A stretch of 64,000 nt of DNA from an uncultured delta proteobacterium. Its GTDB lineage: Bacteria; Myxococcota; UBA727; VGSZ01. The stretch is from positions 192,001 through 256,000 of the forward strand of contig CAVZJB010000007.1 in assembly GCA_963775425.1 (NCBI GenBank), in the 5' to 3' direction. Shown here piece after piece: positions 45,791-50,892 of this stretch. The notes beneath the pieces are model-generated. The model was not told the origin of the DNA, ran no database searches, and saw only the letters and a program-made list of their open reading frames with translations. A program made the translations under genes and the position numbers. The stretch's first letter is position 1. The number at the start of each line of letters is the position of its first letter.

Positions 45791-46399
45791 GTGAGCGACG
45801 ACGCCTTGCCCGAGCCCCTCGAGCGGTTCCGCCTGTGGTGGAGCGAGCGGAAGGCGCTCGACCCGACGGAGATCGCGGCGGCGATGGTGCTGTCGTCGGT
45901 GGACGACCGCGGCCGCCCGTCGTCGCGCGTGGTGCTCTTGCGCGGCTTCGACGCGCGGGGCTTCGCGTTCTACACGAACCTCGAGTCGCGCAAGGCGCGC
46001 GAGCTGCTCGCGCACCCCTTCGCCGCGCTCAACTTCCACTGGCCCGCGCTCAACCCCGACAATCGCGGGCGCCAGGTCCGCGTCGAGGGCGCCGTCGAGG
46101 CCGTCAGCGACGCCGAGTCCGACGCCTACTTCGCCGGCCGCCACCGCGACTCCCAGCTCGGGGCGTGGGCCTCCGACCAGTCGCGGCCGCTCGCCAGCGC
46201 GGACGCGCTCGCGGCGCGCGTCGAAGAGCTGCGCGGGCGCTTCGCGGGCGCGCCCGTGCCGCGACCGCCGCACTGGGGCGGGCTGCGGGTGGTGCCCGAC
46301 GCGCTCGAGCTCTGGCAGGAGGGCGCCTTTCGGCTGCACAGCCGGGAGCGCTACGAGCGCCGCGGGGACGCCTGGTCGCGGACGCTCCTGTACCCGTAA
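45791..46399 (+). CDS. pdxH: Pyridoxamine 5'-phosphate oxidase
   Basis: PSSRVVLL, FYTN.ESRK, RQVRVEG, SQLGAWAS.QS, WGG, E.WQ..RLH.R and L.P motifs. Confidence 0.95.
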   Translation: MSDDALPEPLERFRLWWSERKALDPTEIAAAMVLSSVDDRGRPSSRVVLLRGFDARGFAFYTNLESRKARELLAHPFAALNFHWPALNPDNRGRQVRVEGAVEAVSDAESDAYFAGRHRDSQLGAWASDQSRPLASADALAARVEELRGRFAGAPVPRPPHWGGLRVVPDALELWQEGAFRLHSRERYERRGDAWSRTLLYP

Positions 46400-46429
46400 G
46401 ACCTACATCAAGATCCCCGAAACACACAG

Positions 46430-46456
46430 GAAACCCCTCCGTCATTTGGGCGATAC
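46430..46456 (+). promoter_or_regulatory. Putative sigma28 (FliA/WhiG-type) promoter GAAA-N15-GGCGATAC
   Basis: Matches the TAAA-N15-GCCGATAA consensus at 3/4 and 6/8 positions with an exact 15-bp spacer, 62 nt before a start with a strong RBS. Confidence 0.5.
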
Positions 46457-46518
46457 TCGTCCCGACCACCCCGTCGCGCGCCCGCCGTGGCGCGCGCAAC
46501 CACGGAGGGAACCCCATC

Positions 46519-47979
46519 ATGGCCGTTACGCTGAACAAGGACCCCAAGGCGCTCGCGCGCGAGCTCAACAAATTCGTCACCGACGCCGGGGGCAAGGAGA
46601 TCCCCGGGCTCGACAACCTGGACCCCAAGGAGCTCATCCAGATCCGGGATGGGCTGCGGCAGTTCCTCGACAATTTCGACCAGGCCGGCCAGAAGGACCC
46701 GCAGCTCGCCAAGCTGGCGGACACGGCGGCGGTGAAGTCCCTCCGCCAGCTCGCCCAGATCGCGAGCCAGAAGGTGGACCAGGCCGCGGTCGCCAACACC
46801 GCGCAGACGCAGCAGGGGCTCGCGGCCAACAAGAAGCTGAGCGCCGACGACGTCGCCGCCGGCAACCAGGACATCGCCAACCTGCAGGCGCAGGTGGCGC
46901 AGCAGAAGCTCGCGGTGTCGCAGCAGAAGGTGCAGCTCCAGGGCGAGGTGCAAAAGCTCGAGGCCAACCCCAACCGCACGCCCGCCGAGGAGGCGCTGCT
47001 CGCGGGCAAGCGCACGCAGCTGCAGGTGCTGGGCGGCATCGACCAGAACCTCGACGTCAAAAAGCAGGGCCTCGAGGCGGCGCAGCTCGCGCTCAGCGAC
47101 GGCGTGCTCACCGGCAGCGAGGCCAAGGACCTCCAGACCATCCAGCGCGCCGTGCTCCAGAAGGACCAGATGCTCGGCCAGCTCGGCGCGCAGGCCGATC
47201 AGCTCGTCGGGCACGCGCAGGCGCTGTCGGCGGCGCCCTACGCCCAAAACGGCTCCAACTTCGACCCGATGGCGCTCAACCAGGTGGCCACCTCGGCCAT
47301 CCTCGCGTCGGCGATGCAGGCCAACGGTCTGCCGGGCATCACCGCGCCGGGCAGCAACAGCCTCCAGAACCTCCAGAACCTGATCGGCAACGCCGGCGGC
47401 TTCGCCAACACCGGCGTCGCCAACACCGCGCAGAACTTCCAGCGCGCGGGCGCGCTGAGCACGCCCTCGCGCATCGGTGACGACGCCAGCCTCGGCACCG
47501 ACGCCAACCTGGCTTCGCTCACCGCGGCCGGCGGCGGCGGCGGCTTCTTCGAGGACCGCGTCTTCGCCATCATGTGCAAGGTCGTCGAGGACTTCCAAAA
47601 GCAGATCGAGCAGCGCCTCGAGAAGCTCCAGCAGCAGGCCCAGGACGCCGAGAGCGGCGGGGGCAAGGGCGGCGGCGGCAAGGGCGGCGGCCTCGGCGGC
47701 ATCATCGGCGGCGTCGCGGGCACCGCGCTCGGCGGCCCCGTCGGCGGCATGGTCGGCAAGGCGGTCGGCGGCGCGGTCGGCGGCGCGGTCGACGGCGGCG
47801 GCAAGGGCGGCGCCGGCGGCGCCAGCGGCGGCAACGGTCAGGAGAGCCGCAACATCGAGTTCGAGAAGATCAAGTACGACATGCAGAAGCTCAGCCAGAT
47901 GCAGCAGGCCATGTCGAACATCTTGAACACGATGGACGACCTCGCCAAGAACGCCATCCGCCACATCAAGGCGGGCTGA
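46519..47979 (+). CDS. Q/N/A-rich coiled-coil protein with glycine zipper; candidate type-III-secreted filament/translocator subunit
   Basis: GGAGGG RBS; no signal peptide; no Trp and only 1 Cys; long coiled coil; GGIIGGVAGTALGGPVGGMVG zipper; C-terminal EKIKYDMQKLSQMQQAMSNILNTMDDLAKNAIRHIK. The CDS is certain; the function is inferred. Confidence 0.6.
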   Translation: MAVTLNKDPKALARELNKFVTDAGGKEIPGLDNLDPKELIQIRDGLRQFLDNFDQAGQKDPQLAKLADTAAVKSLRQLAQIASQKVDQAAVANTAQTQQGLAANKKLSADDVAAGNQDIANLQAQVAQQKLAVSQQKVQLQGEVQKLEANPNRTPAEEALLAGKRTQLQVLGGIDQNLDVKKQGLEAAQLALSDGVLTGSEAKDLQTIQRAVLQKDQMLGQLGAQADQLVGHAQALSAAPYAQNGSNFDPMALNQVATSAILASAMQANGLPGITAPGSNSLQNLQNLIGNAGGFANTGVANTAQNFQRAGALSTPSRIGDDASLGTDANLASLTAAGGGGGFFEDRVFAIMCKVVEDFQKQIEQRLEKLQQQAQDAESGGGKGGGGKGGGLGGIIGGVAGTALGGPVGGMVGKAVGGAVGGAVDGGGKGGAGGASGGNGQESRNIEFEKIKYDMQKLSQMQQAMSNILNTMDDLAKNAIRHIKAG

Positions 47980-48045
47980 TGACGTTCGCGCACGGCGCTG
48001 CCGCCCGCTCGACGGCGCGGCGGCAGTGCCCGTAGGATGCCGGCG

Positions 48046-49320
48046 ATGGCGAAACCCCCGGCACCCGGCAGCGGCAAGGGGCGCCCCTCGGGCGCGCCGG
48101 GGAAGCACTCCGAGCAACGGCAGAGCGACGCGCGGCAGACCTCTCTCGAGGCCGGCCGCGCGTTGCAGCGCTTGCTCGACTCCGCGCCCGCGGCGCAGGT
48201 GGCCAAGAACCTCGACCCCGCCACCGCCAAGAACGCGGAGCGCGCGCTGGAGATGGCATCGAGCCTCGAGGTGCACGTCCCCGTCGGGCGCGTCACGGAC
48301 GCCGACATCGAGCGCCGCATCGAGGACATCCGCCAGACGCTGTCGTGGGTGCAGCCGCGCGCGTACGGCGAGCACCTTCAGCCGGGCGACGAGGTGCTGC
48401 TGGACCTCCTCGGCTACATGAACGGCGACGTGTTCCTGGCCCACACGGACACCTGGTACACGCTGGTCCCCAACCGCTTCCTGCCGGGGCTGTTCGAGTC
48501 GCTCGTCGGCGCCAAGGTGCCGGACCACCGCATCGTCCACGTGAAGCTCCCCGACGACTACCCCGTCACGCTGCAGGCGGGGCGCACCGCGGTGTTCGCC
48601 GTCAGCATCAAGCAGGGACGCGGGCGCAAGCTGCCGGACCCCGAGGACCCGGCGTTCCTCCCGTTCGTGAACCGCGGCGTGAAGACGCTCGACGACTTGC
48701 GCGAGCAGATCAAGCACGAGCTCGTCACGGAGCGCGCGCAGCAGATGGTGGAGCACGCCAAGCTCCTCCTGCTGCGCGAGCTCTACATGAAGTGCATGGA
48801 CGACGAGGTCCCGATGATGCTCGTCGACGAGGAGCTCACGCGGCGTTGGCGTGACTTCCAGGGCGAGCCGCTCATCCGCCAGGGCGTGTCCATCGAGGAG
48901 CAGAAGAAGTCGGCGGAGTCGTTCGCCGCGGACCAGAACAACCGCAGCGAGGCGCGCCGCACCATCTGGGAGTACCGCATCCTCGAGGCCATCGCGGCGC
49001 ACCACGGCATCGAGGTCAGCGAGGCCAGCCTGCGCCCCGTCCTCGTCGGCATCTTCGGCCCCGACGTCGACCTCGACGGGCTGCTGTACAAAAACCCCGG
49101 CCTGCACAAGGACCTGGTGAAGGGCATGCGCATGCGCCGCGCGTGCGACGTGCTCTTGAAGAAGGCCAAGGTCTACTTCGACGCGCCGCCGACGCCGCCG
49201 GACAAGGCGTACAAGCCGCTCATCCCCGCCCGCGAGCGCCCCAAGACCGAGGAGCGCCTGGTCTTCACCGCCGCCCGCGGCCTCAAGCGCCCGCCCTCCA
49301 AGGGCCCGCCCCGCAAGTAG
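48046..49320 (+). CDS. Trigger-factor paralog (FKBP-like and C-terminal domains) lacking the ribosome-binding domain
   Basis: VTDADIE..GDEVLLD..G..FLPGLFESLVGAK..LPDDYP..AGRTAVFAV..LP..D..F..TLDDLREQI..VP..LVDEE..ILEAIA..IEVS; no GFRxGxxP motif. Confidence 0.8.
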   Translation: MAKPPAPGSGKGRPSGAPGKHSEQRQSDARQTSLEAGRALQRLLDSAPAAQVAKNLDPATAKNAERALEMASSLEVHVPVGRVTDADIERRIEDIRQTLSWVQPRAYGEHLQPGDEVLLDLLGYMNGDVFLAHTDTWYTLVPNRFLPGLFESLVGAKVPDHRIVHVKLPDDYPVTLQAGRTAVFAVSIKQGRGRKLPDPEDPAFLPFVNRGVKTLDDLREQIKHELVTERAQQMVEHAKLLLLRELYMKCMDDEVPMMLVDEELTRRWRDFQGEPLIRQGVSIEEQKKSAESFAADQNNRSEARRTIWEYRILEAIAAHHGIEVSEASLRPVLVGIFGPDVDLDGLLYKNPGLHKDLVKGMRMRRACDVLLKKAKVYFDAPPTPPDKAYKPLIPARERPKTEERLVFTAARGLKRPPSKGPPRK

Positions 49321-49324
49321 CCTG

Positions 49325-49452
49325 CGTCTCACCGAGGCGAGCGTCGGACGAGACGATGGAATTTCATCGTCTTATCGAGCGCACCTTCCGTCGACAATTT
49401 TCGTCTCACCGTATGAGACGATGATTTACATTTCGTCTCATGGCGGTATCAT
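49325..49452 (+). promoter_or_regulatory. AT-enriched promoter with an array of inverted (T)GAGACGA/TCGTCTCA half-sites; -35 TTTACA (49425-49430), -10 TATCAT (49447-49452)
   Basis: AGACGATG-N6-CATCGTCT at 49351-49372; TCGTCTCA-N5-TGAGACGA at 49401-49421; ATGAGACGA-N11-TCGTCTCAT at 49413-49441, bracketing the -35. Confidence 0.75.
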
Positions 49453-49458
49453 CGAGCC

Positions 49459-50892
49459 GTGGAGGAGACGGTGCTGCGCCTCGCGAGCAAGGAGGGCCCC
49501 CTCACCGGGGACCAGGTGGAGGGCGCGCTCGGCGTCTCCCGCGCCACGGCCCGCCGCGTGCTCAAGGCCCTCGTCGACGCAGGGAGCCTGACGCGCCTGG
49601 GGAGCGGGCGCGCCACCCGCTACGTGCTCGCTCCCCGGCAGTTCCATTGGCCGCGCCCGGCGCTCGACGAGCACGAGGCATGGAAGCAGATCGAGCCCGT
49701 CTTCGCGGGCTCGACCACGCTGTCGCCCGAAGAGCTCCGGACGGTCAACTACTGCGTGACGGAGATGCTCAACAACGCGCACGACCACAGCGCCGGGGCG
49801 AACGTCGACGTCGCGGTGCGGTTCGCCCGCGGTGTCGTCGAGATCGAGATCGTCGATGACGGCGTCGGCGTGTTCGAGCGCATCCGCGACGTCCACGGCC
49901 TGGCGACGCTCGAGGACGCCGTGGTGCAGCTCGAGAAGGGCAAGCTCACGTCGGCGCCGGATCGGCACAGCGGAGAGGGCATCTTCTTCACGTCCAAGGC
50001 GGTCGCACGGTTTCGCCTCGAGAGCGACGGGCTGGCGTGGCTGGTGGACAACGAGATCGACGATCGATCGATCGTCGCGCTCGAGCGCCGCCGGGTCGGG
50101 ACGCGTGTGGTCCTCGAGCTCGTGCCCGGCGAGGTCAAGCCCGTCGAGCAGGTCTTCGCCCCGTGGACCGGCGCCGAGGGCGGCTTCACGACGACGCGGA
50201 CGACGGTGAAGCTGCTCGTGCACGGTGACACGCTCATCTCGCGCTCGGAGGCGAAGCGCGCCGTCTCCGGGCTGGAGCGCTTCCGCGAGGTGCTCTTCGA
50301 CTTCGAGGGCGTGACCGCGGTCGGGCAGGGGTTCGTCGACGAGGTGTTCCGCGTCTTCGCGGTCGCCCACCCCGCGATCCGGTTGCGCGCGACGAACATG
50401 AGCCCGGCCGTGGCGTTCATGGTGAGCCGGGCCCGGCCTCGGCTGGTCGACGACGCCGAAGCGCGCGCGCACCTCTCTGCGCGGTACCGCGTGGCGTGCG
50501 CGCGCCTCGATCTGCTCGCGCACTGCACCTCCAAGGACGACGCCATCCTCCTCGCGACCTCCGCGGCGTTCGGCGTCCTCCGCGTCGACGGCGGCTCCGG
50601 CGACGGCGGGGCGCGCTTCAACGACATCGTCGAGCCGCGGCTCGTGGGCGACCTCGGCGCCGCGTGGGCGCTCGCCGAGCGCTCGCTCCGCCTCGACGAC
50701 GTCGCCCTCGCTGAGACGCTCCTGTGGCGCGTCGAGACCATCGCGCGGGGCATCGTCGAGCGCATCGCGGAGCGGCGGGAGCTGTGGACGTGGTTCGACA
50801 GCGATGACCACCTCGCCGCGTTCTGGGCGCTCGACGGGGCCGAGCGCCGGCGCCTGTGGGGTCCGCGTGTCGCGGTCGCCCCTGGCGCGTGA
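49459..50892 (+). CDS. HTH + HATPase + STAS-like (DUF4325) regulator with extra C-terminal domain
   Basis: LGVSRATARRVL..G.GRATRY winged HTH; TEMLNNAHDHS, DDGVG, HSGEGIFFTSK and GT motifs; LISRSEAKR..LDFEGV..GQGFVDEVFRVF; ~145 additional aa. Confidence 0.85.
   Translation: MEETVLRLASKEGPLTGDQVEGALGVSRATARRVLKALVDAGSLTRLGSGRATRYVLAPRQFHWPRPALDEHEAWKQIEPVFAGSTTLSPEELRTVNYCVTEMLNNAHDHSAGANVDVAVRFARGVVEIEIVDDGVGVFERIRDVHGLATLEDAVVQLEKGKLTSAPDRHSGEGIFFTSKAVARFRLESDGLAWLVDNEIDDRSIVALERRRVGTRVVLELVPGEVKPVEQVFAPWTGAEGGFTTTRTTVKLLVHGDTLISRSEAKRAVSGLERFREVLFDFEGVTAVGQGFVDEVFRVFAVAHPAIRLRATNMSPAVAFMVSRARPRLVDDAEARAHLSARYRVACARLDLLAHCTSKDDAILLATSAAFGVLRVDGGSGDGGARFNDIVEPRLVGDLGAAWALAERSLRLDDVALAETLLWRVETIARGIVERIAERRELWTWFDSDDHLAAFWALDGAERRRLWGPRVAVAPGA

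Follow-up and report, generated by a model that had tools for sequence, protein, structure and literature searches.

Which process is served by a 486-amino-acid (aa) protein without any Pfam or NCBIfam match (gene A, product P0001), which is encoded directly upstream of a paralog of the chaperone trigger factor (gene B, product P0002), is the question raised by a 64,000-nt stretch of contig CAVZJB010000007.1 from an uncultured member of the Myxococcota (genome G000, 8.26 Mb, 72% GC). This whole stretch is referred to as the window, and the coordinates of the 2 genes are positions within it. A reading made from the sequence alone had proposed a polymerizing or pore-forming substrate of a noncanonical type III secretion system (T3SS), expressed from a sigma-28-like promoter and possibly accompanied by its own chaperone. 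We give slightly better than an even chance to the answer that gene A encodes a non-flagellar T3SS substrate of a new family, of the translocator or filament type, and that gene B encodes its dedicated chaperone. The features of the locus are as follows:

46430..46434, forward strand: -35-like element GAAAC, read from the sequence and kept as G(A/C)AAC before orthologues and paralogs
46451..46456, forward strand: -10-like element CGATAC, 16 nt past GAAAC, with a CGATA(A/C/T) core before 21 of 33 family open reading frames (ORFs) in the fetched loci
46504..46509, forward strand: ribosome-binding site GGAGGG, 9 nt 5' of the ATG at 46519
46519..47979, forward strand: gene A, ORF of the 486-aa family member P0001, candidate T3SS substrate
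46519..46809, forward strand: N-terminal helical domain, residues 1-97 (AlphaFold2 helices at 9-97, block predicted local distance difference test score, pLDDT, of 80-90; alignment A4)
46843..47229, forward strand: 3 long helices, residues 109-237, a lineage-specific coiled-coil insertion (pLDDT 87-97)
47548..47658, forward strand: helix 1 of the C-terminal module, residues 344-380, FEDxV...RLxKL, conserved, modelled as a helix and amphipathic
47659..47832, forward strand: Gly-rich linker, residues 381-438, variable and dispensable in the family, low pLDDT
47833..47976, forward strand: terminal amphipathic helix, residues 439-486, conserved in the family and ending at the stop codon
48037..49320, forward strand: gene B, trigger-factor paralog P0002 (427 aa), candidate dedicated chaperone, with Pfam and NCBIfam matches

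A gap of 57 nt separates gene A from gene B, and no terminator-like site was found between them on the forward strand. No sequencing run, and none from RNA in particular, was listed as containing positions 46300-49400. The genes around the pair are not conserved between genomes, with pdxH alone recurring (in locus L019), and therefore the unit was taken to be the 2 genes. The earlier description of a 486-aa protein rich in Q, N, A, and G and devoid of a signal peptide agrees with the ORF and its composition (A 14.8%, G 14.0%, Q 11.1%, N 5.8%, and 1 Cys) as well as with the absence of a hydrophobic N-terminus, and the GGAGGG ribosome-binding site is in place. P0001 has 33 relatives of similar length in 90% clusters, and 1.84 billion 50% clusters yielded 211 representatives at E ≤ 1e-3, of which 80 reach E ≤ 1e-10 and 17 reach E ≤ 1e-30. 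Judged by these matches, the gene A product is not an orphan and appears to belong to an undescribed protein family.

What defines this family is a C-terminal module of 2 helices that ends at the stop codon. The conserved order is a helix beginning FEDxV (F344, E345, and D346 being invariant or nearly so), a variable linker, and a terminal helix with the almost invariant core SRN..FE..K..MQKLSQMQQA.SN.LN. In the A2 alignment (13 rows), which also served as the query of the locus search, 29 columns are invariant, mostly in the terminal helix, and the module ends 0 to 2 residues before the stop in 13 of 13 rows. Members range in length from 240 to 550 aa, their middle regions are variable across the A2 alignment, and the three-helix coiled coil of P0001 is absent from most A2 relatives, being shared only with the closest one.

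The AlphaFold2 model of P0001, built on 71 relatives (mean pLDDT 67.9), comprises a helical N-terminal domain (residues 9-97), 3 long helices (109-149, 155-193, and 199-237; block pLDDT 87-97), a disordered stretch (240-340), and the 2 helices of the module (344-380 and 439-485), between which residues 385-438 are Gly-rich (33 G per 60 residues in the linker) and of low model confidence. The long coiled coil that had been noticed corresponds to the confident helices between residues 109 and 237. Both helices that had been called amphipathic exceed shuffled sequences, since the hydrophobic moment of 0.41 for residues 343-370 was reached by 4.5% of 2000 shuffles and that of 0.53 for residues 455-484 by 0%. 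The proposed Gly-zipper fared differently: in L020 and L024, only a few residues of the Gly-rich linker are left, and the zipper is therefore not a defining feature, which speaks against its role as a membrane-insertion device.

The own genome encodes 5 clear family members, on contigs C7 (gene A), C16, C18, C3, and C6; a further match, on C11, is weak. Among species genomes, 23 loci were obtained, the titles of which name Myxococcota, Myxococcales, or Deltaproteobacteria metagenome bins, as well as 1 short contig labelled Opitutaceae. On the latter (L033, 3.7 kb), a family member lies between 2 tetratricopeptide repeat (TPR) protein genes, the products of which are 79-86% identical to those of the own genome; the label is most likely a binning error. 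Across a sample of the phylum, the family was found in 48 of 401 genomes.

Gene B matches Pfam Trigger_C over its cut-off (E = 1.1e-11), and FKBP_C weakly, below cut-off (E = 0.0028). Its match to TIGR00115 (E = 3.6e-36; 124.9 bits at a cut-off of 180.2) covers model positions 109-364 of 410, leaving positions 1-108, the N-terminal ribosome-binding part, unmatched. GFRxGxxP, the ribosome-binding signature of trigger factor, is absent from all 7 orthologue rows including gene B and is present in the genome's canonical trigger factor, encoded on C16. Because the N-terminal domain is unmatched, the score is below cut-off, and GFRxGxxP is absent, gene B is a paralog and not the housekeeping trigger factor, in agreement with the ribosome-independent trigger-factor paralog that had been proposed.

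The pairing of the 2 genes recurs. A trigger-factor paralog lies directly 3' of a family member in 7 of the 27 fetched loci, and within the home taxonomic family, a trigger-factor orthologue (42-60% identity) adjoins the family member in all 7 genomes in which both lie inside the contig (G028-G033 and G037); the trigger-factor gene that adjoins the family member in G027 is only 29% identical. This strict synteny lends substance to the suggestion of a chaperone gene next door, with gene B as the putative chaperone of gene A. The trigger-factor gene goes together with the extra N-terminal domain, which was found only in members that are then followed by a trigger-factor paralog: domain and gene occur together by tblastn in L024, L026, L028, L030, and L038 (5 of the 7 loci), P0014 of L019 has the domain by alignment, and L039 is cut at its start. 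Complex prediction for the trigger-factor paralog and the N-terminal domain (A5 and A4) gave 0.50, 0.00, and 0.01 in its runs at a mark of 0.32 and thus constitutes evidence neither way.

A comparable arrangement is that of PceT/RdhT in organohalide respirers, where a trigger-factor-like protein is likewise encoded beside a single client gene; PceT is a client-specific trigger-factor paralog without the ribosome-binding domain. The client of PceT is a reductive dehalogenase exported by the twin-arginine translocation pathway, whereas a candidate T3SS substrate is concerned here. A literature search, judged by titles and abstract starts, found no publication in which a trigger-factor paralog is connected with type III secretion.

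Some trigger-factor orthologues were flagged for a TGA inside the match, which, when checked in L030, proved to be the gene's own stop codon, past which the search had continued. The orthologue at L038:2027-3295 has 1 in-frame stop codon, which may be a sequencing error or mark a broken copy. Furthermore, the own genome encodes a second trigger-factor-like gene without GFRxGxxP (G000:C5:131211-132587; 30% identical to gene B), which is convergent with a gene for a 117-aa Gly-rich protein preceded by GCATC-N16-CGATAA; this may be another substrate-chaperone pair.

Other family members have neighbors of a different kind. Genes for 2 small TPR proteins flank the C16 member, and 1 such gene follows the C6 member. 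All 3 encoded proteins match LcrH/SycD best among the NCBIfam families, over the whole length of the model (E = 6.9e-23, 2.9e-21, and 2e-15), with a lead over the next family of 80.9 vs 36.4 bits. Three of the 4 best LcrH-like matches of the genome flank these family paralogs on C16 and C6, and the fourth adjoins a DUF1521 protein. Among the fetched loci, an LcrH-like gene adjoins a family member in 8 of 27, including genomes of 1.1-2.0 Mb and 41-42% GC, in which the TPR protein is 64-65% identical to that of the own genome. Judging by gene order, this appears to be one family with 2 chaperone solutions, either TPR or trigger factor.

The sigma-28-like promoter that the sequence-only reading had written as GAAA-N15-GGCGATAC was found, in the form GAAAC-N16-CGATAC, and is both conserved before orthologues and common to paralogs. 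The pattern [TG]AAA-N15-N[GC]CGATA[AC] has a single occurrence on both strands of the 8.26-Mb genome, which is the gene A site. Upstream of the orthologues in L024, L026, L028, L038, and L030, GAAAC is kept together with (G/A/C)GCGATAC or CCGATAA around a wholly changed spacer; upstream of the L019 orthologue, the motif is absent. The broader pattern G[CA]AAC-N15-17-CGATA[AC] gave 16 matches genome-wide, 5 of which sit 34-62 nt before start codons, namely those of gene A, the C16 and C18 paralogs, a 177-aa protein on C8, and a 170-aa protein on C14. A sixth copy precedes the gene for a 668-aa coiled-coil protein (G000:C16:16245-18270) that is similar to residues 64-240 of P0001 and lacks the C-terminal module. 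Upstream of the C6 paralog, a GCATC variant was found, and no motif was found upstream of the C3 paralog or of the flagellin gene of the own genome, the latter being also devoid of the CGATA element.

In the fetched loci, 33 family ORFs have 120 nt or more of upstream DNA, and 21 of them carry [GA][CA]AAC-N16/17-CGATA[ACT] (20 of 31 once a duplicate region, L036 = L051, is removed); these account for 21 of all 29 motif copies on both strands of 848 kb. By its uniqueness in the genome and its conservation before orthologues, the promoter-like motif of gene A is more than chance. The sigma-28 consensus is TAAA-N15-GCCGATAA, with which the -10 core CGATA(A/C) and the spacing agree and from which the -35 element G(A/C)AAC differs. 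We regard the promoter as a conserved element, probably of the sigma-28 type, that marks a regulon. It is not an ordinary flagellar late promoter, because the own genome's flagellin gene lacks the motif.

A search for other genes sharing both the promoter and the C-terminal helix had been suggested, and it returned the C16 and C18 paralogs and the 177-aa gene on C8. The C-terminal helix of this 177-aa protein resembles the family helix, the motif lies 58 nt upstream, and a TPR protein follows. It belongs to a small cluster (G000:C8:51279-53156) of genes for proteins of 112 aa, 177 aa (Gly-rich), 139 aa (TPR), and 124 aa, a layout typical of a needle gene accompanied by its chaperones; neither Pfam nor NCBIfam gave a needle match in it. 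The 170-aa protein on C14 (G000:C14:81748-82260) has weak matches to SctI (E = 0.019) and FliE (E = 0.021) in its C-terminal 60 residues and is a candidate inner rod protein.

Compared with control by sigma-28 (FliA) and FlgM, the -10 core and spacing are the same and 3 FliA/WhiG-type sigma factors are present in the own genome; moreover, in locus L049 of genome G003 (G003:C18, 7576-10492), a FlgM-like gene of 76 aa (the likeness being judged by eye) and a fliA gene (237.6 bits), which is separate from the flhA-linked fliA of that genome, are divergent from the gene of a 546-aa family member. The differences lie in the -35 element G(A/C)AAC, in the motif-free flagellin gene, and in the regulon, which here appears to consist of non-flagellar T3SS substrates. 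A literature search on sigma-28 with Chlamydia and T3SS found no paper.

The genes required for such a system had to be sought elsewhere in the genome, and both kinds of export genes, flagellar and non-flagellar, were found together with the 3 FliA/WhiG-type sigma factors. A flagellar cluster at C9:346 kb includes FHIPEP (FlhA/SctV), flagellin, hook-associated, rod, ring, and motor genes, FlhF/FlhG, and 2 FliA-like genes (C9:348363-349076 and C9:343362-344087); the third sigma factor is encoded at C13:131332-132138. At C9:110-122 kb, SctT, SctS, SctR, SctQ (101.4 bits, over cut-off), a FliJ-like protein, and the ATPase SctN are encoded together, and second copies of SctU, SctR, and the ATPase are present. 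SctU lies alone on C16, a SctJ-like gene at C9:218 kb, and the second of the 2 FHIPEP genes alone on C4. The C4 FHIPEP is 38% identical to EscV (465 bits), compared to 30% (291 bits) for the flagellar FHIPEP, and 68% identical to the sole FHIPEP of the flagellin-less genome G020. On these assignments, the genome holds a flagellar cluster and a scattered non-flagellar T3SS core.

Co-occurrence of family homologs with export genes had likewise been predicted, and in the 38 genomes of the order, 21 of the 22 family-positive genomes contain FHIPEP, 11 lack flagellin, and 17 contain a FliA-like sigma factor (E ≤ 1e-40); the corresponding numbers for the 16 family-negative genomes are 10, 16, and 1. 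FHIPEP is missing from a single family-positive genome, which is 85% complete and gives a weak family match only. Flagellin-less carriers with a single FHIPEP include G018 (99% complete), G020 (96%, 4 contigs), and G028 (92%), and flagellin-less genomes retain a FliA-like sigma factor of the C13 type. From the flagellin-less carriers with FHIPEP and the likeness of the G020 copy to the non-flagellar one, it therefore appears that the family follows the non-flagellar system and not the flagellum; it also appears to follow a FliA-like sigma factor. Nothing that the sequence-only reading had named as refuting its proposal was observed.

In 1 taxonomic family of the order (21 genomes), genomes are only 0.3-3.4 Mb in size, with 41-48% GC in the regions read; a family member is retained in 6 of the 21 and a single FlhA/SctV gene in 14, which points to host-dependent relatives. 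Since the family and its TPR partners are kept in the relatives of 1.1-2.0 Mb, a host-associated lifestyle in which the system is central is hinted at.

How far the gene A product resembles known T3SS proteins was addressed by several comparisons. Its features resemble those of a translocator or filament protein, and it fits none of those families: no hidden Markov model, profile, or fold comparison places it in SctF, SctI, EspA, SctB, or SctE, and the likeness to axial T3SS proteins for which profile and Foldseek comparisons had been suggested was not recovered by hhalign (at most 1.2% probability) or by Foldseek, which returned no match at E ≤ 0.001 for the full-length model against the Protein Data Bank. 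With alignment A3, hhalign gave 0.3% for EscF (residues 40-64 of 73) and 1.2% for EspA (11 columns, 161-171 of 192), the aligned pieces falling on the C-terminal helices of both; the templates were single sequences from the locus of enterocyte effacement and hence weak, so distant homology stays possible. For SseC (PF04888), P0001 has no match, and 4 of 71 relatives match at E ≤ 0.01, below the cut-off of 30.2 bits; the 2 matches examined (26.8 and 22.9 bits; profile positions 25-92 of 312) cover helix 1 and the hydrophobic linker. In a language-model neighbor search, the nearest named clusters carry T3SS_needle_F, DUF720, SseC, and EspA, with scores of 0.77-0.84 that serve as leads only. These neighbors and the sub-threshold SseC matches point toward a T3SS reading.

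Like the SctE/SctB translocators and their class II TPR chaperones (YopB/YopD with SycD, IpaB/IpaC with IpgC, and EspD/EspB with CesD), the gene A product has no signal peptide and shows the order of a coiled coil, a hydrophobic Gly/Ala-rich segment, and a C-terminal amphipathic helix, and family paralogs adjoin small TPR proteins with LcrH/SycD as best family. In contrast to them, all family members stay below the SseC cut-off, some lack the hydrophobic linker, hhalign found no significant similarity to EspB or EspD, gene A is paired with a trigger-factor paralog instead of a TPR chaperone, and the family genes are scattered outside any apparatus operon. Conserved membrane-spanning segments of the SctE type were considered and rejected, since the sole hydrophobic Gly-rich stretch varies within the family and is all but missing from L020 and L024. 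With the axial proteins SctF, SctI, and EspA, the family shares the helix-linker-helix arrangement with the last helix at the C-terminus and the pattern Q..SN...(D/H)..A...I..I, so that helices 344-380 and 439-485 may form a needle-like pair; however, the family proteins, with 240-550 aa and large extra domains, are far larger than needles of about 80 aa.

Several of our results weigh against the view that gene A encodes a T3SS substrate. The evidence for a T3SS link, export included, is contextual. Neither PF09392 nor PF03433 matches P0001 (E ≤ 1) or any of 71 members (E ≤ 0.01), the A1 and A3 profiles retrieved no Protein Data Bank sequence below E = 0.05, and none of the hhalign probabilities of A3 against EscF, EspA, EspB, and EspD is significant. 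VIA-align brought up nothing but generic helical bundles (Z no higher than 11.7; the IpaB coiled coil ranked 30th with Z 9.6), scores within the range common for helical models, and the fold matches are to generic coiled coils. Within the genome, the needle family PF09392 has no match in 6 frames at E ≤ 1, and both secretin-like matches are below the SctC cut-off. Gene A itself has neither a TPR neighbor nor a T3SS gene nearby, and the G020 family gene likewise lies among unrelated genes. The LcrH/SycD matches (57-81 bits) are below the curated cut-off of 104.8, and the model also matches in 11 of 14 control genomes, in none over cut-off, so cross-matching of TPR proteins is possible because of this wide occurrence. 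FHIPEP occurs in 10 of the 16 family-negative genomes as well, and the co-occurrence counts describe rather than test the association, because related genomes are not independent samples. Finally, 12 of the 33 family ORFs lack the strict motif.

These points bear most on the explanation that the gene A product is no secretion substrate at all and instead a cytoplasmic or envelope coiled-coil protein (a scaffold, membrane-remodelling, or stress protein) that belongs to an alternative-sigma regulon and has ordinary folding partners, which we consider unlikely. It would account for the missing T3SS family match, for best fold matches to BAR, ESCRT-III, and other generic helical proteins, for the Gly-zipper families (such as C19orf12 and Transgly_assoc) matched by some members among the 71 relatives scanned, for the wide cross-matching of TPR models, and for the position of gene A beside no apparatus gene. 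However, it leaves unexplained that the TPR neighbors match LcrH/SycD at full length with a lead of more than 2-fold in bits (80.9 vs 36.4), that the promoter is shared with genes for small proteins whose C-termini resemble those of needle or rod proteins, that FHIPEP is present in nearly all family-positive genomes, that genomes of 1.1-2.0 Mb keep the family with TPR genes, and that the terminal helix stands at the exact C-terminus in every A2 row.

Less probable still is that the product is a secreted effector or harpin-like toxin, or a substrate of a type I, type VI, or Tad-linked system or of vesicles. The Gly- and Gln-rich composition with 1 Cys and no signal peptide, the fact that a genome carries several diverged paralogs (3-7 matches in the home taxonomic family), and the variable middle regions would be in line with this, as would the occurrence in 1 relative of DUF1521, by which rhizobial T3SS effectors of the NopE type cleave themselves. 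A DUF1521 protein is also encoded in the own genome beside an LcrH/SycD-like TPR protein (407 aa, Pfam E = 2.6e-16; G000:C12:241386-243297). Yet the conserved part of the family is the terminal helix pair and not a catalytic or variable head, the retention of an orthologous TPR locus in reduced genomes fits a core part better than an accessory effector, and the neighborhoods read showed no link to genes of other secretion routes.

The third explanation, a flagellum-linked late gene whose product is exported through or works with the flagellar apparatus under flagellar sigma-28, as do flagellin, cap, and FlgM, is improbable: the resemblance of the promoter to the sigma-28 consensus, the full flagellar cluster with 2 FliA-like genes, the presence of the family in 11 of 11 flagellin-positive genomes of the order, and the G003 member beside fliA and a FlgM-like gene would suit it, but 11 of 22 family-positive genomes have no flagellin match, some of them 92-99% complete with a single FHIPEP, that of G020 shares 68% identity with the non-flagellar copy, the own flagellin gene has no CGATA element, and the paralogs adjoin LcrH/SycD-like TPR proteins, i.e., chaperones of the injectisome type.

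If gene A encodes a translocator- or filament-type T3SS substrate served by gene B, a course of events may be proposed in which we infer the acting sigma factor, the chaperone-binding site, export, and assembly outside the cell. One of the 3 FliA/WhiG-type sigma factors would read the G(A/C)AAC-N16-CGATA(A/C) promoter, yielding a single mRNA for both genes. The trigger-factor paralog, unable to dock on ribosomes, would capture the finished substrate, most likely via the substrate's family-specific N-terminal helical domain, keep the sticky C-terminal helix-linker-helix module from self-association, and deliver the protein to the export gate. Outside the cell, the 2 conserved amphipathic helices might form coiled coils and so build a polymer or an oligomer associated with a membrane, which would parallel the terminal helices of needle, filament, and translocator proteins.

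Such proteins would be of interest for the T3SSs of myxobacteria. According to PMC10849154 and PMC12075869, the T3SS* of Myxococcus xanthus is without secretin, needle, and translocon, and its effectors are called only potential; the Myxococcales system was placed at the root of non-flagellar T3SSs, and myxobacterial systems were described as descendants of an early intermediate between flagellum and injectisome (PMC3459982). The system of G000 resembles this "needleless" T3SS* in being a non-flagellar T3SS of the same phylum with missing or scattered parts (PMC10849154, PMC12075869, and PMC3459982), and differs in that the T3SS* is reported there without secretin, needle, or translocon homologues and in that our family was found in 0 of 172 genomes sampled from the largest taxonomic family of the phylum. 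A search for papers on type III secretion in Myxococcus and Myxococcota, judged by titles and abstract starts, found none on the gene A family.

As myxobacterial type III systems are reported with unknown substrates (PMC10849154 and PMC12075869), the family offers candidates: conserved, promoter-tagged putative substrates with their own chaperones provide concrete proteins for what these systems export and assemble, and the promoter is a simple sequence tag for the rest of the regulon. Were the role of gene B to hold, it would possibly be the first case of a trigger-factor paralog in type III secretion, widening the kinds of secretion chaperones. A bolder proposal, doubtful as a whole, is that the family supplies the "missing" extracellular parts (needle extension, filament, or translocon) of a deep-branching, scattered non-flagellar T3SS of the Myxococcota, that a checkpoint of the sigma-28/FlgM type, taken over from the flagellum, turns its members on, and that in one subfamily the ribosome-free trigger factor was enlisted as a fourth kind of T3SS chaperone, which recognizes the dedicated N-terminal domain.

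Downstream of the pair, a sigma-70-like match, TTTACA-16-TATCAT (10/12), is the only one in the scanned stretch and lies at window positions 49425-49452. A 477-aa ORF (49459-50892), which is not conserved beside the gene pair in other genomes, follows directly 3' of it, and the N-terminus of its product looks like a helix-turn-helix.

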